A DNA stretch of 64,000 nt from Phyllobates terribilis. Taxonomy: Eukaryota. The DNA lies in the NCBI RefSeq assembly GCF_046119375.1, contig NW_027362764.1, positions 189,038,001 through 189,102,000 of the forward strand. The letters run 5' to 3'. Made by a program: the position numbers and the translations under genes. How positions within the stretch are numbered: the stretch's first letter is position 1; each line of letters starts with the position of its first letter. The notes under the pieces were generated by a model, which saw only the letters and a program-made list of their open reading frames with translations, ran no database searches and had not been told where the DNA came from. Positions 4,877 through 40,239 of this stretch are shown here, piece by piece.

Positions 4877-5860
4877 TATGTACCATCCTGCCAAACTTTG
4901 AGCAGTCGACCAAGATGGTGAGTGGCGATGACGCCATCATTAGCGTCAGCATCCCACTTGTCTGTCTTTTGCAACGCTCTCTGCAGAGAATTAAAGAGGA
5001 GGCATTGCAGCCAGAGTATGATGAGATGGATCAAGAAGCCGTAGCGGGTGATTACACACAGCCCAGCCTCATTTCATCCCAACGTACATTGGGGGACAAT
5101 GAGGGAGAGGATGAGGAGGAGGAGGAAGAACAGGAGCTGGTATCATGTGCTGTATATGGTAGTACCTGTACAACTGTCATACCATAGGTTCAGCGTGGGT
5201 GGCCTGAGGACGGGGGGAGGAGGAGGAGGAGAGCATGGTCAGTCGTCATCTTGGTGAGGATGTGGAAGTCTTGCCCGTTACCAGTCTGGCACGCATGGCT
5301 GACTTTATGTTATGCTGGGACAGTTTTCTGAGACCTGCCCAGCTTACAGGCCCTGGAGTGCGGGGTACTCTCACAAGGAGTGGAAAGTTTCAAAAGATGG
5401 TGAGGGAGTACCTTGCCGACCGTACCAGCGTCCTCCGTGATTACTCTGTGCCTTTTAATTATTGGGTATCCAAGCTGGACACTTGAAATGAATGCGCTAT
5501 TTACGCATTGGAGGTCCTGGCCTGCCCTGCCGCTAGCGTGTTATCGGAGCGTGTTTTTAGTGCCGCTGGGGGAATTATAACTGATAAGCGCACTCGCCTG
5601 TCAACTGACAATGCTGACAAGCTGACCCTTATCAAAATGAACAAGGGCTGGATTGGGCCAGACTTCTCATCACCACCAAATGACAGCAGAGTAACATAAA
5701 GTCAAATACACTGTGTTATTTTGGGAGGTGTATTGCGATGCACCGCTTCACACCCACACATGGGTATACACTTCCTCATTTTGGCTGTTTTTCCTTACCC
5801 TCAGCCTCCACCACCACTACACCACCAGGGTGACCGTGGTCCATGTTGCCAGCATTGCAA

Positions 5861-6255
5861 GTTCCTCCGTCTTAATTTTTGGCAGCTTTTGCTTGGAAGG
5901 CATAGGCAAAGACTATGGGAGAACCACTCCCCAATAATGGGAATAATGTTTTTTAATATGCTGTACTGCATGGCTCTTGTAATGGGCATTGCAAGTTCCT
6001 CCGTCCTAATTTTTGGCAGCTTTTGCTTGGAAGGCATAGCCAAAGACTATGGGAGACCCACTCCCCAATAATGGGAATAATGTTTTTAATATGCTGTACT
6101 GCATGGCTCTTGTAAGGGGCATTGCAAGTTCCTCCGTCCTAATTTTTGGCAGCTTTTGCTTCAAAGGCACAGGCAAAGACTATGGGAGACCCACTCCCCA
6201 ATAATGGGAATAATGTTTTTAATATGCTTTACTGCATGGCTCTTGTAAGGGGCAT
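5861..6255 (+). repeat. ~133-bp tandem unit x3 inside hAT-A (x2 in copy 2 at ~23150-23410)
   Basis: gttcctccgt... recurs at 5861, 5995 and 6128. Confidence 0.85.
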
Positions 6256-6990
6256 TAAAATCGTCTTGTTAAGCTACTGTGACCTCCACATCTCTTCCAA
6301 GGGTCATTGATATTGTCTTTTTATTCCACTGTGACATCAACGTCTCTTTCAAGGAGCATTAAAACCGTCTTTTTAAGCTACTGTGACCTCTACGTCTCTT
6401 CCAAGGGGCATTAAAACCGTCTTGTTAAACCACTCTGAACTCCACGTCTCTTCCAAGGGGCATTAAAATCGTCTTGTTAAGCTACTGTGACCTCCACGTC
6501 TCTTCCAAGGGTCATTGGTATTGTCTTTTTATTCCACTGAGACCTCCACCACTCTTCCAAGGGGCATTTATATTGTCTTTTTATTCCACTGCGACCTCCA
6601 CCACTCTTCCAAGGGGCATTGATATTGTCTTTTTATTCTACTGTAACCTCCACCACTCTTCCAAGGGGCATTGATATTGTCTTTTTATTCCACTGGGACC
6701 TCCACCACTCTTCCAAGGGGCATTGATATTGTCTTTTGATTCCATTGGGACCTCCACGTCCCTTCCAAGGGGCATTAAATCCGTCTTGTTAAACCACTCT
6801 GAACTCCACGTCTCTTCCAAGGGGCATTAAAACCGTCTTGTTAAGCTACTGTGACCTCCACGTCGCTTCCAAGGGGCATTAAAACCGTCTTCTTAAACCA
6901 CTCTGAACTCCACAGCTCTTCCAAGGGGCATTGAAATGTTGTTTTTAATTACCTCTAACCTCCACGACTCTTCCAATGGGCATTGCATTT
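6255..6990 (+). repeat. ~52-bp satellite inside hAT-A copy 1
   Basis: Repeated ccaaggggcattaaaaccgtcttgtt...ccacgtctctt units, plus a shorter gatattgtctttttattcc variant. Confidence 0.9.
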
Positions 6991-9611
6991 CCTCCTTATT
7001 TTAGTCAACTTTTGCTTTTCAATGCATAGGCGAACACTATGGGAGACCCACTCCCCAATAATGGGCAGAAGGTTTTTAGTACGCTGTAATCCACGTCTGT
7101 TTCAAGGGGCATTGCAGTTCCTCATAATTTTTGGAAAGCCTTCAATTCACTGCTTAGGCCAACAGTGTTAAGGTTTAGTTAAGGCCCTCTGACCTCCATG
7201 TCACTTCCAAGGGGCATTGGAGTGCCTCAAAATTTTTGGTAGGCATTGCACTCACCTATAAGTGTGTAGCCGAACCGCTCCTTTTGGTACAGAAACATAT
7301 CCTACAAGACATGTGTGGTTGACTGGCCTGATATTGATGTGAATGGTCCCTGTTCCTCCTGCTCTTTCTCCTTTGCCACCACCTCATCCATCATTCATCA
7401 CCTGAAGCTTTGTTTTAACGGGAGTCATAGAACTGGGATAATAGCAGGAAAACATCCAGCAATCCTTGGAGGAGGTAAGATATGCGCCAAAACGCTGACC
7501 ACCTCAGGCCTAGCCGCTACTACATACATGCGCTTGCATTCCAAGGAACAGAAAGCTAAGGAGATGGATGGCCTCATGATCATGAATAATTTACTCGTTG
7601 TGTAGGAGGCCGACCACTGCTGTTGTCTACCTTCTGAACTTTGTGATGAAGCATGAGTGACCCAGGACCCGCAATCCTAGTGTTCAACTGTGTCCCGGCT
7701 TCCACAATATTAACCCAGTGTGAAGGCGTCAGTGAGATGGACTATCCGTGGCCACATTCACTTGTCCAGGTGTTTGTGGTTAGACTGTCCTTCCCACTAA
7801 ATGCACTTGGGAGGCCCAATTTCAAGTGCAAGCAAGCAGTATGGTATTGCAGCCTGGGGGTGGGTGGGTAGCAGGCTGCATACTTGCGCTTGCATTGCAA
7901 GGAATGGGGGAGGTACAATTGAACACTGCCCTGGGACAAGGACTTGAACGGGGATAGTTGCAAATGTGCAACGACAGGTGCAGGGGAGGCATCTTCGCAT
8001 GTGCCATGAACAGGGGGTTGGCATGCACACACTACAGCGGAATAGGCTGTCCTTCCCATTAAATGCACTGGGGAGGGCACAAGTAATGTTTTCGTATGCG
8101 CGCTTGTGTATAAGGCGCACCGGGACAAATAGGGGCGGCTGGGGACAGAGTATGGACACCCGGCTGCCCCCTGGCGGCTGGAGACCGAGTGTGGACACCT
8201 GGCCGCTGGGCAGCTGGGACTGAGTATGGATACCAGGCCACCGACGCAGCCATGACATGGTGGCCGGCGTCTGCCTCCACAAGCCTAAAAGGCTTCATTT
8301 CAAGTGCAAGCAAGCTAGCAGTATGGTATTGCAGCCTGGGGGTGGGTGGGTGGCAGGCTGCACACTTACGCTTGCATTTCAAGAAAACAAAGCAGATGCT
8401 AACTTCTATCACCATCATGCTCCTCACCTTGGCACTCTCAACTCCCCTGATGGAGAATCCAGGGCCCACCGGAGGAGTCTGGTTGTCTGGTGGGCTCATC
8501 CAATGCTGCCCTGAAGCAGGCCAGGCTAAGAAAAGTGTGGGGAAGGTTCTCGGGACAAATAGTGGCGGTTTGGGACTGAGTATGGAGACCTTGCCACTGA
8601 CGCAGCCATGAGGTAGTAGCCAGCTTTTGTCTCCTCCAAACTAAAAGGCCCCATTTCAAGTGCAAGCTAGCAGTATAGTATTGCAGCCTGCGGGTGGGTG
8701 GGTGGTTGCCTGCATATTTGCGCTTGCATTGCAACGAATGGGGGAGGTACAATTGAACACTGCCCTGGGACAAGGACTTGCACAGGGATAGTTGCAAGTC
8801 TGCATCTTCTGATGTGGCAAGGATCACTTCTTATGGGCACACTATTAGGCAGTGACCTGGGTGTCAGAGATGCTTCCAGGGGTCTTCCCCGTGCTGTTCC
8901 CAAGTCTTTTCAGCACTGTATGCATGTGTCACACAGCACATGACCAGATAAGGTTGTAAAATGACATTTCCTGGTGAATGCATTTGTCACGGTTGAAAGC
9001 AATACAAAAGTGCAAAAACGCATAAAAAATGCTACTTGTGAACATAGCCCAAGGTGTGGAGGAGTATTTTTGTTTTTGGTTATTTATTTTACCTTATACA
9101 CAAGTCTTTACCCTGGAAAGGATGTTCCTTAACATATTTCACAGGAAAACAGTTTGTTTAGTTTTTGAACGTTTTATTGTGAGTCCGTAAAAGTGGCTTA
9201 ATACCTCTGACCACGTTATTGACAGCAGTGACCTGGGGGTCAGAAATGCTTCCTGGGGCGATCCCCATGCTGCCCCCATGTCATTTGAGCACTGTCACTA
9301 TCGTTTTGGGCACTTTTTAGGCTTTCTACAGACTGCCGGGGGTGCCGCCGCAAAAATGCTCGGGTCTGCCATAGACTAACATTGGGCTCGTTGCTCGGGT
9401 CGAGCACCCGAGTATCACGGTGAGCTCGGCCCGAGCTTCGAGCACCCGAGCATTTTAGTGCTCGCTCAACATTACTAATAGACCAAAATCAAGGGCTCTC
9501 CCATGAATCAAGAAAACCAATAGTTATATAGGAACATATAGCCAGAAATTCCTTAAAAAAAGATTTATTCTTTATTGCAGAAATATAAGAAAGAATTTTA
9601 ATACATTCATA

Positions 9612-9970
9612 TTGCATATATTAAATTGCATGTTAAATTTCCTAGAGGAGCATTGCACGGCGAATAAGCCTCCTTACATTGGCATGCCAGAGCCGGTGTG
9701 TCACTCTTCACAAGGAGAAACGTTATCCCTTAGACCTCAGTCCAAAGCCTCTCACCCAGCCAAATCAGTTCTCATACTTTGCACTGATGAGGGGACATAC
9801 CCCGAAACAATGTGTCTGCATATTGAGATTCTGATTTGGCTGTTATCCTAAGTCATATTGCAAGATTTATTAAAGGGTCGATAGTGAATTGTAGGATTGC
9901 TGCTTCCAACAGGTGGCGCTATAGAGTTTAAGTCCTCTTCCTGTCTGAAGAGGCAATTTGCATATTAAAT
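9612..9970 (+). mobile_element. Retrozyme-like non-autonomous retroelement monomer (~350 bp) with a hammerhead ribozyme
   Basis: Homologous by eye (roughly 80%) to the 330-bp tandem unit at 39483-40188 on the opposite strand. Central hammerhead sits within a long self-complementary stem. Confidence 0.8.
9780..9820 (+). ncRNA. Type I hammerhead ribozyme, intact core
   Basis: Stem I TGCA (9780-83)/TGCA (9817-20); CTGATGA 9784-90; stem II GGGG-acata-CCCC; GAAA 9804-07; stem III ACA-atg-TGT; GUC cleavage triplet 9814-16. Confidence 0.9.
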
Positions 9971-10020
9971 AATTTTAAGGAATTTCTGGCTATATGCTGC
10001 AATATAATTATAGGTTTTCT

Positions 10021-10171
10021 CAAATATTGATTTGATTTAGATTTTACTTTTGTTCTTTCACTTTGCATTTTGTTGATTAATAGAAATAAACTATTTATAC
10101 TTTTATTTTTTAAAGCATTCTTACTTTACAGCATATTTTCCACATCTGCCTGAAACTTTTGCACAGTATTG
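10021..10171 (+). mobile_element. Right end of the old Tc1 element begun at 1-54
   Basis: caaatattgatttgatttag...gcctgaaacttttgcacagtattg resembles a Tc1 right TIR region. Confidence 0.65.
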
Positions 10172-13100
10172 GTGTGGTGCCCTGCAAAGTCAGGCGTCAC
10201 AAATGTCTGTGAACTCTGATGGTGTGAGAAGCCAGCTCTTCAGCCATTTTTACACACACACGTAATTAGTGTAAGGGTCATTGTGAAGTCTGGTGGGTAG
10301 CAGCCCCCGCAGGAGAAATGCAGAGCCAGGAGAAGCAACCCTGGGCCCCTGGAATTGAGTGGTACTGGAGATCAAGGAGGCCAGTGCCTTTGCTTTGGTG
10401 ACTGTCGAGACTCTAGCACAATCTGTGCAGCCGCATGGGACATAGTGTCCTCTGCGGTTCAAGAAGTGCCCAATGGCCAGACGACGTCAGTTAGGGATCT
10501 GAAGAAAGATGTCTTGATATGATCCTTAGTTGCCAGCAGTGAGAAAAAAGCTGAGGTACGTTCCTATAAGCCTTACTGCACGTATAGTGCTATATGCAGC
10601 AGGTGAGAGGAGAGCTGCTACACATTGCCGGAAAAGAGCTGGGCTCATCACACCATGAGAGGCTGTTGGCTCAGTGTAATGAATATCTGTGGAGAGCTGT
10701 AATCATCATCATCAACTGCTCCAGTTAATGCGAGTTTTTTTTCCTGTTGCACCTGAGGTCTGGACATTGCTTATTGAGATGGGCTGATACTGTATCCCTT
10801 CCACAGCGCTCTCCTTCTTATTATTGCCAGCCAGCGAGACCACCGTGAGCGTTGGCCACCATTACACACCGACTCGGTGGAAGCCGACCCAGACATTGGC
10901 ACAGTACTATAAGTAGTAGCTGAAAGCTATGCTTCCTGAATACTCAGTCAGCACATGGCTGTCTGAGACAGCTTTAAAAGGCCTTGAGTGATTATTTCAA
11001 AGGTGTTTGCTGGGTTACTGAAGTAACGTAACATGGACTAGCACAGAGGGAGACAGCAATAGGGGAAGGGAAAAGTCCAGTGCTTGAGCCGAAACAAGTG
11101 AAAAACAACTACTTCCTGCAAAATATACCAAATGTATATTAGAAAGTAGGGGACAAATGTAGACTATTTGCAAAGTTATTTTTTGTGTCATAGTGATTAG
11201 GATAAACAGAATACAAAAATAAGTTTTCTATTTGTATTAAATGAGATCAGCCATTACTCCCCAATTCCTTACAATCCAGCGCCTGACTGACAGAGACCCG
11301 GCTATGGCAGGAGCACCCTCACTGTTCTTTCTGGTCACAAAGATTGTAAAGTCTTGTCCCTTGGCTAAGCAGCCCAAGATTATTGAACACTGTGGGAAAG
11401 TTTGTCTACTGCTCACTTTTTCAATTATTTTCTAGGTTTAATGTTATATTAATATAGGATTTTTCCCTCTCTCTTTTTCTCTCTCTGATCTCTCTTTTTT
11501 TCCCTGCACGTTCTTTTCCTCTCTATCTATTCTTCGCAGTAACATAAAACACACTTTTGAACAGACCCTTTTTAGTAGCGTTTTTTCTTCTTTTTTTTTA
11601 TCAGTAATTGTGTTTATAACCGAAATAAACTTCAGAGTACTCGAGGAATTGTGTAAAGTCAATAATTTACATGTCAAAGATCAGAAAAATGGGCATTCTC
11701 AACCAAAATGGTACTTTCCACTCAACGTCTGACCACATCCATGAGGGAGTTCCAAAACAGCCATATGTTTTAAAGGTCATGATTTCTTTATTTAAAATAA
11801 CACTTTTTTGTGGTAACTATTTTGTGGTAATATCACTTTTCACTTAGAATAGTTAGGCATTCATATTAGGAATATATGCTTAGCTTTTCGGCTCTGTACA
11901 GTCTTCCCTATCATTTGCTATGGCTGAAATGCTCTTAAGACTGTAAGACTATAACAGTTTCATTCTTGGCTCTCTGAAATTAAAATATTCTATCTTTGCT
12001 TGTTAAATTTCCCTTAATCTTATTGTAAAATACTGTATCCCTGAGTCATGCATGCAATCTAGGGAAAGTGCATTAAAATAAATTAGATTTTCTACTAAAA
12101 GTAAATGTAATCATGGGATACTGTTAGAAAAATGTCAGCTATTTTGTGCATTCACGGACAGCCACATAAACTGTAGAGGATTTCACGCAGGAAAGACTTA
12201 TGAAATGTCTGAGACATCAAAAGCATAAGATATCTGACTACTGCACTCTGGTCTTAAGAAAGACACTGGCTCTAAATGTGTATTACCCATATTACTATTA
12301 GGACCTAAATGGACTTCTAAATTAGTTTAAGTCTCAAAAAATAAAATAACAACATGAAAGTTTGTCGAAGTCAGTAACATCTTTGTAGTGAAGGGGGAAA
12401 GATAACACAGTAACTTTGTTCTTTTTATTTTAAAAAATTATTGCCCTGATTCATCAAGAATGGCTTATTGATGAAGTGTGCACTTCTTAATGACTTTGGC
12501 GCATCTTTCAGATGTCATGTGCCATTGTAAGAAATGTACACCAATCAGGGACTGATTTCTGTTGTAATTTAAACTACATTTGTGGCAAAAATTATGATTC
12601 ATTTTTTTGGGTGCGCTCAGCCAAACGCCCTCCAGGCCCAGCTATGCTTACTTTTCAAAAAGTTTGTTGGAGCTCACTGGGACTGGTGTAAAAAAGCCAA
12701 AGGTTGTAAAAATATGCCGTGGTGTAAAATGACGATAAATGTTTTGAAGATAAAATATGTTATCATTTTCAAAGGCATGTGACTCTGTCAGACCTATATT
12801 AGAAGTACCTGTATATAAAGAAGTATAGTGTATCGTTGGTGATCAATTGCAGAGGAGGAGTCAGTTGCATTTGACCCTCAAAAGGCTAGATATTATACAT
12901 ACATGAATCACTGAGTAGTTTTCCTAACCCCTAAGGAAAAAAAATACGATGCTTTTTGGTATCACACGTGTTGGTGGTGGCATGGAGTTTGTTACACTTT
13001 TTTGTGTAGACTTTTTTTTAGACTTTATAATACTGCATTTCTGGAAAGTTGGAGTTAAAAAATGCATGGCCTTTTCTCACATTTTTCTTATAGGTTGACT

Positions 13101-16537: not shown

Positions 16538-17986
16538 TTAACCCCTTAGTCGGGAGCAAATGTATGGAGTGGGGTCATGGGATGAGCTCGCCCTATAATC
16601 GACAGTTAATCGCTGTGACACAAATCCAGGACCTGCCTGTAAGAAGCCCAGGGGGAGCGGAGCTCAGGTCATGATTTTTAACCTGTTAAATACCACCCGT
16701 CAATCCATGACAGAAGCATTAACAGGGCGCTGGCATGGGGGCATATCATTTCATCCACCCACTAGCTGCCCTGCGATGTGATCGCGGGGTGCCGATGGGT
16801 TGTTATGACAGCCGGGGGTCTGTTAAACACCTCCATGCCTGCTATCATGAGCTCCATTGAAACCCAGCCCAGCAATCTATCAGTTTTAGCTGCTGCTAAG
16901 CTATGATTGGCAGCATTTGGGAGGCAGTGGTGAAAGAACACGTCCTCAGAAAAAACTGTGACGAAATACCCAGTTGGAATCCAATTCAGAGATTTCACAT
17001 GCTGCGTTCTAGAAGAAACAAATGTGAATATCTCTGCAAAGGAGTGACACAGCGCAAAACAGAAAAGAGCAGGAGAATCAGGGGAACTCAGGTATATTAA
17101 AATATATTAAATTCATTTTTTTTATCAAGTGGCAGGTCCTCTTTAAGGAGATTAGCTGTGGGGAACTTTTTTGGCATGATAAAAAGTGTGAAAATTAGCT
17201 TTCACCAAAAAATAAAAGAAACAAAAATAGAACAAGCCTTGCATCATGACCAGGAAAAAAGCCTATGTTGACACTCATCTACAAACAGCTGTTTTGGATA
17301 CTTGCCCCTCATCGGGGGGTGACAATATGCTGGGGCCTAGGCAGCACTCCTTCAACATCTATGAATAGTAGCAGAGATTAAAATTTTACATTTTGGGACA
17401 TATTTTTTGAAATTTTATTAAACTTACCAATTGTGCTTCATTTTAACATCATCTTAACAGACTGAAAAGCTGAGCCTTCTTCAAACCAGGTTGGTGCCAG
17501 CTGTGTTATACAGACTGCATCTGCATCTAACAGAAACTACTTGAGCTACTTTTGATTGCTTCAATCTCTAACAGCATTTTTTAAAGCCTGCAATAGTGCC
17601 CTTGCATCTGCTCTGTTGCCCATCAGCCCCGTGACATTATTGTGGAATGCCAGTAGGTTGCCATAATAGCCTGATGAAGGCCCCTGACACTGCCATCTTA
17701 GTACACCTGAGCATGGTACTACTGGTAGGTACCCCTGTTTCTGGCATCTCTGTACTCCTATACTCATAGAACACAGTGATTTTACTATATACTGCAATGC
17801 TGCATTATTGCAGGATATAAAACAAGCCATTAAATGATTGCAAGATCAAGTCGCCTAAGGGAAGTAAAAAGTTAAGTGTAAAGTAAAAAAATATATAAAT
17901 ACTAAAAAAATTAAAAAACAAACATATGAATTACCCATCTTTTCACTCTTTGAAAATAACTAAATTAAAAAATTTGCCATTGCTAT
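16538..17986. mobile_element. Fragments of a TTAA-CCCCTT (piggyBac-type) non-autonomous element, apparently continuing at 39017-39480
   Basis: TTAACCCCTT start. AT-rich sequence on both sides of hAT-A copy 2 joins across the ATTGCTAT TSD. Family assignment is recognition only. Confidence 0.35.
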
Positions 17987-18327
17987 TAGTGTTGATCGAG
18001 CACTAAAATGCTCGGGTGCTCGAAGCTCGGGCCGAGGAACCATGATACTCGGGTGCTCGACCCGAGCAACAAGCCCAATGTTAGTCTATGGGAGACCCGA
18101 GCATTTTTGCGGAGGCACCCCTGGCAGTCTGTAGAAAGCCTAAAAAGTGCCCAAAACGATAGTGACAGTGCTCAAATGACATGGGGACAGCATGGGGATC
18201 GCCCCAGGAAGCATTTATGACCCCCAGGTCACTGCTGTCAACAACGTGGTCAGAGGTATTAAGCCACTTTTACGGACTCACAATAAAACGTTCAAAAACG
18301 AAACTGAAACGGCTTTCCTGTCAAATA

Positions 18328-21569: not shown

Positions 21570-23150
21570 AATGCCCCTTGGAAGAGTCGTGGAGGTTAGA
21601 GGTAACTAAAAACAACATTTCAATGCCCCTTGGAAGAGCTGTGGAGTTCAGAGTGGTTTAACAAAATGGTTTTAATGCCCCTTGGAAGACACGTGGAGGT
21701 CACAGTAGCTTAACAAGACGGTTTTAATGCCCCTTGAAAGAGACGTGGAGTTCAGAGTGGTTTAACAAGACGGTTTTAATGCCCCTTGGAAGAGACGTGG
21801 AGTTCAGAGTGGTTTAACAAGACGGTTTTAATGCCCTTTGGAAGAGACGTGGAGGTCACAGTAGCTTAACAAGACAGTTTTAATGCCCCTTGGAAGAGAC
21901 GTGGAGTTCAGAGTGGTTTAACAAGATGGTTTTAATGCCCCATGGAAGAGACATGGAGGTCACAGTAGCTTGACAAGACGGTTTTAATGCCCCTTGGAAG
22001 AGACGTGGAGTTCAGAGTGGTTTAACAAGACGGTTTTAATGCCCCTTGGAAGAGACATGGAGGTCACAGTAGCTTAACAAGACGGTTTTAATGCCCCTTG
22101 GAAGAGACGTGGAGTTCAGAGTGGTTTAACAAGATGGTTTCAATGCCCCTTGGAAGAGACGTGGAGGTCACAGTAGCTTAACAAGACGGTTTTAATGCCT
22201 CTTGGAAGAGACGAGGAGTTCAGAGTGGTTTAGTGGTTTAGCAAGACAGTTTTAATGTCCCTTGGAAGAGACGTGGAGGTCACAGTAGCTTAAAATTACG
22301 GTTTTAATGCCCCTTGGAAGAGACGTGGAGTTCAGAGTGGTTTAACAAGACGGTTTTAATGCCCCTTGGAAGAGACGTGGAGTTCAGAGTGGTTTAACAA
22401 GACAGTTGTAATGCCCCTTGGAAGAGACGTGGAGGTCACAGTAGCTTAACAAGACCGTTTTAATGCCCCTTGGAAGAGACGTGGAGTTCAGAGTGGTTTA
22501 ACAGGACGGTTTTAATGTCCCTTGGAAGAGACGTGGAGGTCACAGTAGCTTAACAAGATGGTTTTAATGCCCCTTGGAAGAGACGTGGAGTTCAGAGTGG
22601 TTTAACAAGACGATTTTAATGCCCCTTGGAAGAGATGTGGAGTTCAGAGTGTTTTAGCAAGACCGCTTTAATGTCCCCTTGGAAGAGACATGGAGGTCAC
22701 AGTAGCTTAACAAGACGGATTTAATGCCCCTTGAAAGAGACGTGGAGTTCAGAGTGGTTTAACAAGATGGTTTTAATGCCCCTTGGAAGAGACGTGGAGG
22801 TCACAGTAGCTTAACAAGACGGTTTTAATGCCCCTTGGAAAAGACGTGAAGTTCAGAGTGGTTTAACAAGACGGTTTTAATGCCCCTTGAAAGAGACGTG
22901 GAGGTCACAGTAGCTTAACAAGACGGTTTTAATGCCCCTTGGAAGAGACGTGGAGTTCAGAGTGGTTTAACAATACGGTTTTAATGCCCCTTGGAAGAGT
23001 GGTGGAGGTCGCAGTGGAATATAAAGACAATATCAATGCCCCTTGAAAGAGTAGTGGAGGTCCCAGTGGAATAAAAAGACAATATCAATGACCCTTGGAA
23101 GAGACGTGGAGGTCACAGTAGCTTAACAAGATGATTTTAATGCCCCTTAC
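21570..23150 (-). repeat. 52-bp satellite expanded to ~30 copies in hAT-A copy 2, with two largely alternating variants
   Basis: Period of 52 measured at 21721/21773. Variants ggagttcagagtggttt and ggaggtcacagtagctt mostly alternate. Confidence 0.93.
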
Positions 23151-23570
23151 AAGAGCCATGCAGTACAGCATATTAAAAACATTATTACCATTATTGGGGA
23201 GTGGGTCTCCCATAGTCTTTGCCTATGCCTTCCAAGCAAAAGCTGCCAAAAATTAGGACGGAGGAACTTCTAATGCCCCTTACAAGAGCAATGCAGTACA
23301 GCATATTAAAAACATTATTCCCATTATTGGGGAGTGGGTCTTCCATAGTCTTTGCTTATGCCTTCCAAGCAAAAGCTGCCAAAAATTAGGACGGATGAAC
23401 TTGCAATGCTGGCAACACGGACCACGGTCACCCTGGTGGTATAGTGGTGGTGGAGGCTGAGGATAAGGAGAAGAGCAAAAAACAGCCGAAATGAGGAAGC
23501 GTATACCCATGTGTGGGTGTGAAGCGGTGCATGGGAATACACCTCCCGAAACAACACAGTGTATTTGACT

Positions 23571-24619: not shown

Positions 24620-25132
24620 TAGTGTTGAGCCACCCCCGTAGTGTTCGAGTTCGGTTCGGTTCGTCGAACACCCGTGTGTTCACCGAACTGTTCGTCGAAC
24701 TGTTCGTCGAACACCTTCGAACACCGTTAAAACCAATGGCAGGCAAACAAAAACACATAGAAACACATAGAAAACACCTTCAAAGGTGTCCAAAAGCTGA
24801 CAAACTGCTCAGAAGACACAACTAACACATGGAAAAGTGACAAGTACATATAGTCATGCGAAAAGAAAAGAGGTGGAGGAGTAAAAGGAGGGGGAGACAC
24901 AGATATAGGCATGTCATGCCCTTCTAAAATCCAAAAAGTGAGAAGCCGACACTTTCAGTCCGCTCCTGCCCGTGCCACCTCCGTGTCGCCGGGTTTGTGC
25001 CAGAGCCGCGGTGAACCCTGACGGCCAGCCCCCCTCTCCCAATACTGGTGCCTGTCCGCTGGTGGGTCGAGCGAGCCCCCCTGTGGTGGAGGCAGCTCTA
25101 AGCTTTTTAATTTAAATTGTCTCTCTAATTTG

Positions 25133-25390
25133 AATAAATACACTTTAAATCCATTTACAAGGATCTATTGGAGGGCAAGTCTCATGCCAGCAGCCGCGTA
25201 ATTCCAGCTCCAGTAGCGTCCACTAAAGCTGCTGCAGTTAAAAAGCTTTTATAAGGATCGAGCTCGGCTGTCCACCGCAAGGCATCCTACTGCCAGTCCC
25301 AGCCCCTATGCCTTGGGGTGCCTCCTGATGCTCTTCACTGAGTATCCCGTGGTCCCGAAGCATTTCCTTTGAAAAAATTAAGTGTCCAAA
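25133..25390 (+). pseudogene. Degenerate internal fragment of 18S rRNA carried inside hAT-B
   Basis: cactttaaatcc...attggagggcaagtct..tgccagcagccgcg-taattccagctcca..agcgt...taaag.tgctgcagttaaaaagct...gatgctctt.actgagt.tccc...cccgaagc.ttt.ctttgaaaaaatt matches the conserved 18S helix-18/V4 region. Confidence 0.9.
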
Positions 25391-38385: not shown

Positions 38386-39621
38386 TTTTTGGGGGGGGGA
38401 ATACCAAAAGGTTAATAAAGCGGGTATTTGTACAGTCTGACTGAGGAAAAAAAAAGAGGATTTAGATGAAAAAAAAGGATTTTTCCTGGCCCCTGAGACC
38501 TGGGGCTAAGTCTAGCAATGTGAGAAGCAGTACACAGGACTGTAATGCAGTGTTTGTTGGTATAACCACTGCCTCTCCTATACAGCCTGCCTGCCTGATA
38601 TCTGGGATGCATATTAGTCCTGAGAAGGACTGTTTGTTTGATTTGGCAGGCTTTAGAGACCCTACACTACCTATTTCGCACTATATATCTCTCCCTAACT
38701 CAGCAGCACTGACCCTACACTGTCTAATCCCGGCGACTGTGTCCAAGATGGCGGCGCCCGGTTTTAAATACTCGAGGTGACACTGTGCGGCCAGGCAATC
38801 ACTGTAATGCCTACAACCAACATGACTGCGGCATTACAGTGACTGGCTGGCATTCCCTGCATGTTCATTGGCTCTGTAAAGAGCGCCAAACGTGCAGGGC
38901 GGAGACCCGAGCTCCTGCCCGAGTAACCCAGAAATACTCGGTGCTCGCCGAACATCCCGAGTAGTGAGATGCTCGGGCGAGTACCGAGCAGTGTCGAACA
39001 TGCTTGCTCAACACTAATTGCTATATCTGCAAATGTCCGATCTATCAAAATATTAAATTATTTAATTCAGAAATTCAATGCCATAAAGCAAAAAAAGAAA
39101 AATTGAAATACCAGAACTGCATTTTTTTTGCTTGCCACACCTCCCACAAAAATGAAATAAAAAAATTATAGGTACCACAAAATTATACCAATAAAAACAG
39201 ATGGATGCTGGGTGTGACACGGGGGGTAACCCCTCCCACAACCCAGCAGCCAGCGCGGGGACCCCAGCGCTGAGTCACGCCTCACTTGTCGTGACGTCAG
39301 CGCTGGGTCATGTGATGCCTGTGAGCGGCTAAGGATAGCGCCGCTCACAGGCAGAAACAGCAACGTAAGGTATTTGCAAAAATCCTTAGGGGCCCCGGGG
39401 GATAATATAAAGTACTGGACAACTTCTTTAAATATGACATACAAATCAGAGACAAAAAAAAAACGGTGTCAAAAACGCTATATGCAAATTGCCTCTTCAA
39501 AGAGGAAGATGATTAGAACTCTAGTGCCACTTATTGGAAGTAGCAATCCTAAAAAGTCAATATCGACCCTTTAACGAGCTTTGGCACATGACTTAGGATA
39601 AAAGCCAAACCAGAATCTCAA

Positions 39622-39666
39622 TTTGCAGATACTGCGTTCCGGGGTATTGCCCCTCATCAGTACAAA
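39622..39666 (-). ncRNA. Hammerhead ribozyme motif, degenerate core (GGAA for GAAA)
   Basis: Minus strand reads tttgta CTGATGA GGGG caata CCCC GGAA cgcagt ATC tgcaaa. Confidence 0.8.
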
Positions 39667-39951
39667 GTATGAGACCTGATTTGGCTAGGTGAGATGCTTA
39701 AGATTGGGATCTAAGGGGTAACGTTTCTCCTTGTGGAGAGTGACAAGCCATGCCTGGCATGTCAGAGTGAGGAGACTTATACGCCATGCATGCTCTTTTG
39801 GGCAATTAAATATACAAATTGCCCCATCAGAGAAGAAGAGGACTAGAACTCTAGTGCCACTTATTGGAAGTAGCAATCCTAAAAAGTCAATATCGACCCT
39901 TTAACGAGCTTTGGCACATGACTTAGGATAAAAGCCAAACCAGAATCTCAA

Positions 39952-39996
39952 TTTGCAGATACTGTGTTCCGGGGTATTGCCCCTCATCAGTACAAA
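39952..39996 (-). ncRNA. Hammerhead ribozyme motif, second tandem copy, same GGAA change
   Basis: Minus strand reads CTGATGA GGGG caata CCCC GGAA cacagt ATC tgcaaa. Confidence 0.8.
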
Positions 39997-40239
39997 GTAT
40001 GAGACCTGATTTGGCTAGGTGAGATGCTTAAGATTGGGATCTAAAGGGTAACGTTTCTCCTTGTGGAGAGTGACAAGCCATGCCTGGCATGTCAGAGTGA
40101 GGAGACTTATACGCTTTGCATGCTCTTTTGGGCAATTAAATATACAAATTGCCTCATCAGAGAGGAAGAGGACTAGAACTCTAGTGCCAAACGCTATAAA
40201 AACGTACTCAAGATGGGGTTCAGAGTGTACATTAATGAG

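Follow-up and report, generated by a model that had tools for sequence, protein, structure and literature searches.

The short hammerhead-bearing repeat at 9.6 kb of the window (the whole 64,000-nucleotide stretch of the Phyllobates terribilis genome analyzed here) is best read as a truncated, likely inactive copy of a high-copy retrozyme, likely inserted by a borrowed reverse transcriptase/endonuclease of the Penelope type from an RNA that was likely circular and is predicted to have been transcribed from an internal small-nuclear-RNA-type promoter in tandem parent copies; we assign this composite reading a probability of about 70%. As one of thousands of copies, and a decayed one, the locus is unremarkable in itself; the interest lies in the insertion and promoter anatomy of the family. 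The identity of the enzyme and of the template that mobilize animal retrozymes is stated to be open in the available text of two studies (PMC7229834; bioRxiv 10.64898/2026.07.22.740005). The insertion anatomy described here points to an enzyme of the Penelope type, and the predicted starts of reverse transcription, 149 and 253 nt past the cleavage site, along with a predicted start of transcription 50 nt before that site, open the retrozyme cycle to direct tests.

The self-cleaving motif is genuine. A complete type I hammerhead can be read from the forward strand at 9780-9820, with predicted cleavage after C9816, exactly where the original prediction had placed it: the CTGATGA core occupies 9784-9790, the GAAA of G12-A13-A14-A15.1 lies at 9804-9807, stem II pairs 9791-9794 with 9800-9803 across a 5-nt loop, stem III consists of 3 bp (9807-9809/9813-9815) closing a 3-nt loop, the GUC triplet is found at 9814-9816, and stem I pairs 9780-9783 with 9817-9820. 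All the features that define the type are present, namely, C3-A9, G12-A14, A15.1-U16.1, H17, stems I-III, and an open helix I. Past an internal loop, helix I continues on the same strand over 9757-9842, through 5 bp (9770-9774/9824-9828) and then a helix of 12 bp (9757-9768/9831-9842), one more than the 11 bp originally counted. A search with the full hammerhead descriptor hit the window once, at this site, and gave nothing in 100 mononucleotide shuffles of it or in 360 kb drawn at random from the genome; the motif is therefore beyond chance expectation. Scoring with the Rfam hammerhead models, which had been proposed as a check, gave no match for the window copy, neither at the gathering score nor at E<=10.

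The copy extends from 9623 to 9970 on the forward strand and is 5'-truncated, with one 332-bp unit preceded by about 11-16 nt of the previous one, that is, 1.04 units and a single hammerhead. The terminal redundancy that had been noted does exist, as an overlap of ~9623-9638 with 9955-9970; the pairing first given for it, at an offset of 345, is out of register because the period of the unit is 332, and the letters at 9612-9621 align by eye with an adjoining older repeat, not with the retrozyme unit. A possible 9-bp target-site duplication (9618-9626, partner 9962-9970, forward strand) is ambiguous, the same letters being part of the unit. The long rod-like hairpin envisaged at the outset gives way to a stem of ~21 interrupted bp within a branched structure that has 58% of its positions paired and forms 6 hairpin loops, and the stability of which is modest (folding z-score of -2.0 as a linear molecule and -1.5 as a circle). 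The minimum-energy fold lacks helix III, and the full hammerhead fold has a probability of 0.005, compared with 0.0004-0.018 in typical members of the family, improbable for both; as modeled, folding of the monomer appears no worse than in typical copies, and some cleavage by the 9.6-kb copy is conceivable.

The immediate surroundings belong to a different, older, low-copy repeat with ends of the Penelope type, the left arm of which (9471-9621, reverse strand) carries the 3' end and a tail of ~35-40 nt, and the right arm of which (9971-10020, forward strand) carries the short end without the tail. These two arms, arranged head to head, account for the 48-bp inverted repeat 9511-9558/9973-10020, which accordingly was rejected as a part of the retrozyme. 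At 11 other loci, the older repeat stops at the short end in 7 cases and ~35-40 nt further in 4, and we take it to be the likely end of a Neptune-like Penelope element; at two loci, a motif resembling a minimal hammerhead was spotted by eye ~750 bp upstream of it. We read the older repeat as an earlier inverted insertion of the Penelope type, the AT-rich center of which became the target of the retrozyme; a composite event through a template jump is conceivable as well. Farther out, the composite is flanked by multicopy repeats, at 9100-9470 on the left, a common interspersed repeat that is also found near 17983-18327, and at 10021-10172 on the right, with 80-86% identical matches at three of the family loci (L017, L131, and L244), presumably the end of a Tc1-like element. 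In a contig from run X15, a bridge of 14 other letters connects 9470 with 10021, which could represent an empty site or a chance joining of two common repeats.

The family is a dispersed, multicopy one, as had been predicted, with a non-coding unit within the 150-450 bp range of non-long terminal repeat (LTR) retrozymes, one type I hammerhead per unit, and both tandem and dispersed copies; the unit period is 332 bp, and arrays of up to ~6 units were found. A DNA search of the frog's own genome (10.6 Gb) returned 90 matches from the best 40 scored of 7,628 candidates, and exact patterns, counted genome-wide, occur 1,190 times (33 nt of the intact core), 2,401 times (34 nt just past the cleavage site), and 5,969 times (19 nt of the 3' end); the reversed controls gave 0. 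The repeat, then, has at least 5,969 genomic copies, and homologous copies elsewhere in the genome, a count of which had been called for, are plentiful. Older pieces of the family occur in 4 of 36 random 10-kb stretches (941 of 360,000 bases), a density that, as a rough extrapolation, implies on the order of 10^5 loci. Amphibian non-LTR retrozymes, which the original prediction invoked as an established class, are indeed already in print (PMC7229834; bioRxiv 10.64898/2026.07.22.740005, as far as their available texts go), and the present family is new within that known class, with the proviso that the supplements of both studies may already list the family or its features.

The 105 other units that we sampled are 91.5% identical to one another. 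Between subfamilies, stem II has undergone a compensatory swap (82 C-G units vs 14 G-C units), so that the spreading lineages appear to keep the ribozyme. For one subfamily pattern, 353 intact cores were counted genome-wide against 4 dead ones, which rules out a dead-core subfamily. Helix III in the family has 3 bp and a near-palindromic loop, and 17 of 85 family arms cover at least two hammerhead positions; an alignment-wide consensus fold of the family was uninformative except for stem II. Within 3 Mb of a single contig (G000:C2:858865046-861767026), the pattern with the G-type stem II is matched nine times in a row on the forward strand, possibly a segmental amplification or a source cluster.

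The case for the enzyme comes from the ends of the insertions. We mapped 85 loci through the core pattern (90 fetched, 5 dropped as belonging to the same arrays) and 60 through the downstream pattern (70 fetched, 10 dropped as overlapping), all on the chromosome-scale contig C1. The copies share a fixed 3' end, site A, at ~9965 in the window (9934-9970, forward strand), 149 nt past the cleavage site and 12 nt past a 7-bp hairpin at 9934-9953, and a second fixed 3' end, site B, equivalent to ~9737 (9705-9740, forward strand; not an end in the 9.6-kb copy), ~253 nt past the cleavage site, 104 nt beyond site A of the preceding unit, and ~19 nt past a 5-bp hairpin at 9705-9718. Where a 5' inverted arm is absent (97 insertions), the 3' end is at site A in 81, at site B in 7, and elsewhere in 9; the 48 insertions with a head-to-head inverted arm combine A with B in 31 cases, A with A or B with B in none, and include at least one other end in 17. 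A separate set of 29 best-hit loci speaks against a strict rule, two of them (L011 and L021) being A+A. Duplications of at least 8 nt accompany inverted insertions in 25 of 31 cases and plain ones in 21 of 54, as against 1-2% of mismatched flank pairs, so that 46 of the 85 loci have target duplications, of 8-15 bp, well over the 4 bp exceeded by retrozymes; the flanks are 70% AT vs 53%, and the 5' ends are variable.

Fixed 3' ends, a tail on one side, 5' truncation, an inverted arm, and an AT-rich target together compose the pattern of Penelope mobilization, which the family shows. In the available text of published accounts, Penelope-like elements are marked by one-ended tails, inverted arms, and duplications of 8-10 bp (PMC3846280, PMC8557442), and an anole Penelope protein was shown in vitro to start at two internal sites and to nick AT-rich DNA on both strands (PMC11167929). 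On the basis of this match, we infer a Penelope-type enzyme, which narrows the unspecified borrowed reverse transcriptase of the original prediction; the pairing of A with B in head-to-head insertions corresponds to the Penelope 'tail' signature, and sites A and B would be the starts of reverse transcription. The hairpins that precede the two sites are 91-98% paired, and the role of these hairpins is unproven because no two-sided covariation was seen among the commonest pair types. A miniature inverted-repeat transposable element (MITE), with the 48-bp flanking inverted repeat as its termini, was also considered and discarded: the inverted repeat is absent from family copies L002-L030, and of 85 loci, only two have inverted similarity of the flanks, one weak and one due to a simple repeat.

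The same marks are what one would expect if the unit were the pseudo-LTR of an autonomous Penelope element outside our sample, with the 9.6-kb locus as a solo truncated terminal repeat, a proposition that gains some appeal from the wealth of elements with GIY-YIG endonucleases in this genome (4,370 candidates) and from the report that, of 57 retrozyme families in Xenopus, 24 correspond to known elements, which are Penelope termini in almost every case (bioRxiv 10.64898/2026.07.22.740005, available text). We nevertheless consider it very improbable. Of the loci sampled from these candidates, 30 with GIY-YIG and 20 longer Penelope ones, none carries the unit as a terminal repeat, and no open reading frame (ORF) for a reverse transcriptase with GIY-YIG was directly bounded by the unit among the sampled loci, so that a pseudo-LTR origin is not demonstrated. 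No autonomous partner for the retrozyme emerged from these 50 loci either, a point that weighs against our main reading as well. Arms of more than one unit (>340 nt in 36 of 85 loci of the first sample and 30 of 60 of the second) run into another unit instead of an ORF, six loci that bring the two together (L064, L142, L143, L164, L225, and L290) are insertions into or near Penelope ORFs, and the hammerhead of the family is canonical, with helix III, whereas the motif behind the Penelope ORF at L279 is of the minimal type. Two candidate parents were dismissed individually: at L064 the unit had inserted into a gene for reverse transcriptase, duplicating ~12 bp of the target, and at L290 it follows the ORF only after 1 kb and other repeats. 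Retrozyme copies sit inside Penelope coding sequence at L064:1453-2934, L225:567-1337, and L164, and pieces of Penelope endonuclease genes occur near several of the 189 family loci.

The template that the borrowed enzyme copied can be approached through the 5' ends of the arms. A cleaved linear monomer would yield cDNA of at most 149 or 253 nt, and in an unbiased count, 70 of 71 arms run on past the cleavage site (106 of 108 in a larger, partly selected set), which favors a circular template. Nor is there an excess of ends at the predicted start of transcription (4 of 92 at risk, 40-59 nt upstream of the cleavage site); because cDNA ends accumulate at neither place, the template appears to have had no end there and hence to have been a circle. 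Tandem units also share rare variants far more often than random pairs do (74 of 768 vs 111 of 17,765). Seven loci seemed at first to have 5' ends at the cleavage site, as left by cleaved templates, and were set aside, given that two of three junctions extend 5-6 nt more and that the unbiased count contains 1 such end in 71.

The principal competing explanation retains the Penelope-type enzyme and makes the template a long, uncleaved, linear read-through of tandem arrays, with the ribozyme and the circles as side products or later-acting components. In the available text of the anole study, the Penelope protein takes unprocessed RNA, and mutants of the hammerhead leave insertion in vitro unaffected (PMC11167929); in vitro cleavage was seen for just one Xenopus dimer of 9 (bioRxiv 10.64898/2026.07.22.740005, available text). 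Some tandems, moreover, join different subfamilies (L017, with 0 of 9 concordant sites, and L002, with 1 of 6), the switch points in these hetero-tandems not being locatable, as haplotypes are mosaic. The window itself contains a further case, an independent, diverged-subfamily insertion of 2.15 tandem 330-bp units on the reverse strand at 39480-40189, with its 3' end at site A, a 10-bp target duplication, and 81-82% identity to the 9.6-kb copy; both units have a broken hammerhead core with the same changes at A13 and in stem III, a variant that occurs only 4 times in the genome. A dead core common to both units, whether this tandem was inserted or duplicated as such, cannot easily be explained by a circle, and together with the hetero-tandems, it implies that template switching, multimeric templates, or later duplication must also occur. 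However, a linear template should leave 5' ends at the start site, or at the cleavage site if cleaved, and neither is found, and the stem II swap and the preponderance of intact cores suggest that the ribozyme has been kept. We therefore judge the linear template unlikely, albeit with a weight that should not be neglected, and favor the circle over an uncleaved linear multimer roughly three to one.

The RNA from which such circles would be made is predicted to have its own promoter. Comparison of the unit with the upstream regions of the host's own U1, U2, and U6 genes, with a matrix built from only 5 host proximal elements, identified a 16-mer at 9700-9715 (forward strand) that resembles the proximal sequence element of small nuclear RNA (snRNA) genes; this is the best matrix match of the unit, on the sense strand, with a typical unit scoring 16.7, a value reached by 0 of 1,080 random segments. 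The 16-mer agrees with one host U6 element at 13 of 14 positions and has persisted in the diverged subfamily, although its conservation could stem from the overlapping RNA hairpin instead. An octamer motif resembling those upstream of the host U1 and U6 genes sits at the end of the unit (9956-9963, forward strand; exact in 79 of 106 units), and its upstream counterpart at 9624-9631 has one mismatch in the 9.6-kb copy. No TATA box is visible between the proximal element and the predicted start. From these sequence matches, the promoter is predicted to be of the RNA polymerase II, U1/U2 type, with +1, going by the spacing in U1/U2 genes, at A9767. The stretch just past the octamer position, 9634-9660, resembles what we take to be an SPH/Staf site, and another, 9905-9922, presumably a CTCF site.

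In the light of these observations, a cycle can be proposed in which polymerase II would start ~50 nt before the cleavage site, as the octamer and the proximal element suggest, and read through tandem units; tandem hammerheads would cleave as dimers, and the 332-nt monomer would be ligated into a stable circle, of the kind shown for axolotl retrozymes (PMC7229834, available text). A Penelope protein would then nick both strands of the target and start cDNA synthesis internally, at two sites in the RNA, on a template that would have no end at the cleavage or start site, that is, on the circle. At the 9.6-kb locus, synthesis would have begun at site A, proceeded for 1.04 turns, and landed in the AT-rich center of the older inverted insertion, with decay thereafter.

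The copy is likely decayed and inactive today, contrary to its initial description as a potentially active member of the family. Its median identity to the 105 other units is 88%, and none is closer than 92%, which leaves no sign of recent offspring. Private changes affect loop 2 (9795 and 9796), the internal loop that corresponds to loop 1 (9821), and loop 3 (9810), with letters found in 0-3 of the 105 other units, the loops being conserved in the family; contacts of loop 1 with loop 2 are needed for efficient hammerhead cleavage, according to the available text of PMC7229834. The predicted dimer helix III amounts to -3.0 kcal/mol vs ~-7.4 in typical copies. The proximal element carries a C>T change in its core, at 9708, and scores 11.9, a value reached by 31 of 1,080 random segments. 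Active elements have at least two consecutive intact hammerheads, and with only one, the copy cannot release a monomer or a circle.

That the 9.6-kb copy is nonetheless an active source of self-cleaved or circular RNA is hardly credible, even though all its core nucleotides and stems I-III are intact, which is true for only part of the family: the single hammerhead, the private changes in all three loops, the weak predicted dimer helix, and the altered promoter core argue against it, as do the transcripts. Two poly(A) runs, possibly from a different species, contain 656 and 1,340 family-like reads on an 801-bp stretch, of which 1 and 3, respectively, are at least 99% identical to the copy, and the read ends, which bear on the proposed cycle of the family as well, do not pile up at 9767 or 9816 in these possibly heterospecific data; poly(A) libraries would not retain circles. 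Back-joints of 332/333 nt occur in the poly(A) reads; run X15 shows them too, and tandem DNA accounts for them. In runs X20 and X23, loose ends at 9802 mark abundant reads with a third stem II variant in which pairing is apparently kept, suggesting another expressed subfamily in the sequenced organism.

Similar in build among the known systems are the axolotl retrozymes Rtz_331 and Rtz_353 (Cervera & de la Pena 2020, PMC7229834), which, in the available text, share with the present family a non-coding unit of ~330 bp with one canonical type I hammerhead, a short helix III predicted to need dimers, occurrence as monomers to short tandems, long target duplications, and co-existence with Penelope elements. 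The axolotl retrozymes, of 331 and 353 nt, give rise to both linear and circular RNA, with better cleavage in dimeric form; the present family, in which circles are predicted, has, compared by description, a helix III that closes a 3-nt loop with 3 bp, A15.1-U16.1 included. Three features of the present family, namely, its pair of fixed 3' ends, the pairing of inverted arms, and the promoter, go unmentioned in the available text of PMC7229834. The newt satellite 2, reported to have an snRNA-type polymerase II promoter (Coats et al. 1994, as cited in the available text of PMC2220036), is similar in its unit of 330-332 bp, type I hammerhead, extended helix I, and internal snRNA-type promoter, in our case a predicted one, the likeness consisting in a sequence match to an octamer and a proximal element inside the unit. 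Unlike satellite 2, again compared by description, the present copies are dispersed, mostly as insertions of 0.5-2 units with Penelope-type ends.

According to the main text of a 2026 preprint, retrozymes are found in all 7 amphibians sampled, with a mean unit of 316 bp, and are proposed to be non-autonomous derivatives of Penelope elements (Li, Clavereau & Pollet 2026, bioRxiv 10.64898/2026.07.22.740005). The Xenopus retrozymes described there resemble ours in their many dispersed monomers and in the proposed mobilization by Penelope; the argument, however, differs, being based on co-occurrence and pseudo-LTR similarity, whereas here it is based on insertion anatomy, and no pseudo-LTR parent was found in the sampled loci. 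The words 'promoter', 'snRNA', and 'tail' are absent from that main text, and in the literature outside subscription journals, we found no description of an snRNA promoter or of two-ended insertions in a non-salamander retrozyme. The anole element Poseidon PAc is alike, in the available text, in its two internal starts of reverse transcription, AT-rich targets, and insertion without a need for cleavage (PMC11167929). The one-ended tail, head-to-head arms, and 8-10-bp target duplications are also those of Penelope-like elements as described in the accessible parts of PMC3846280 and PMC8557442, from which the present unit differs in having no ORF and in its 'tail', which measures 104 nt vs 30-40 nt and is the start of the next unit.

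These likenesses invite a broader, speculative reading, which we regard as possible, though short of probable: the present family and the salamander satellite 2 might represent a single ancient retrozyme lineage, an RNA parasite complete in itself, that captured a host snRNA promoter, makes circles through dimeric hammerheads, and carries two hairpin-marked start sites for a dimeric Penelope protein, one per DNA strand. If so, the lineage would be a SINE-like partner of Penelope elements, not a shed pseudo-LTR, and the copies in the genome would document past rolling-circle reverse transcription of circular RNA. An snRNA-type promoter held in common with newt satellite 2 would bear on whether amphibian retrozymes had one old origin or were derived repeatedly from pseudo-LTRs.

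Elsewhere in the window, part of an 18S rRNA, likely pseudogenic, lies at 25100-25219 (Rfam RF01960, 61 bits). Tandem repeats of 52 bp and 133 bp form two related blocks in opposite orientation at 5852-6985 and 21570-23409, and further arrays have periods of 108-110 bp (28.9 kb and 32.4-34.4 kb) and 141 bp (37.7 kb).
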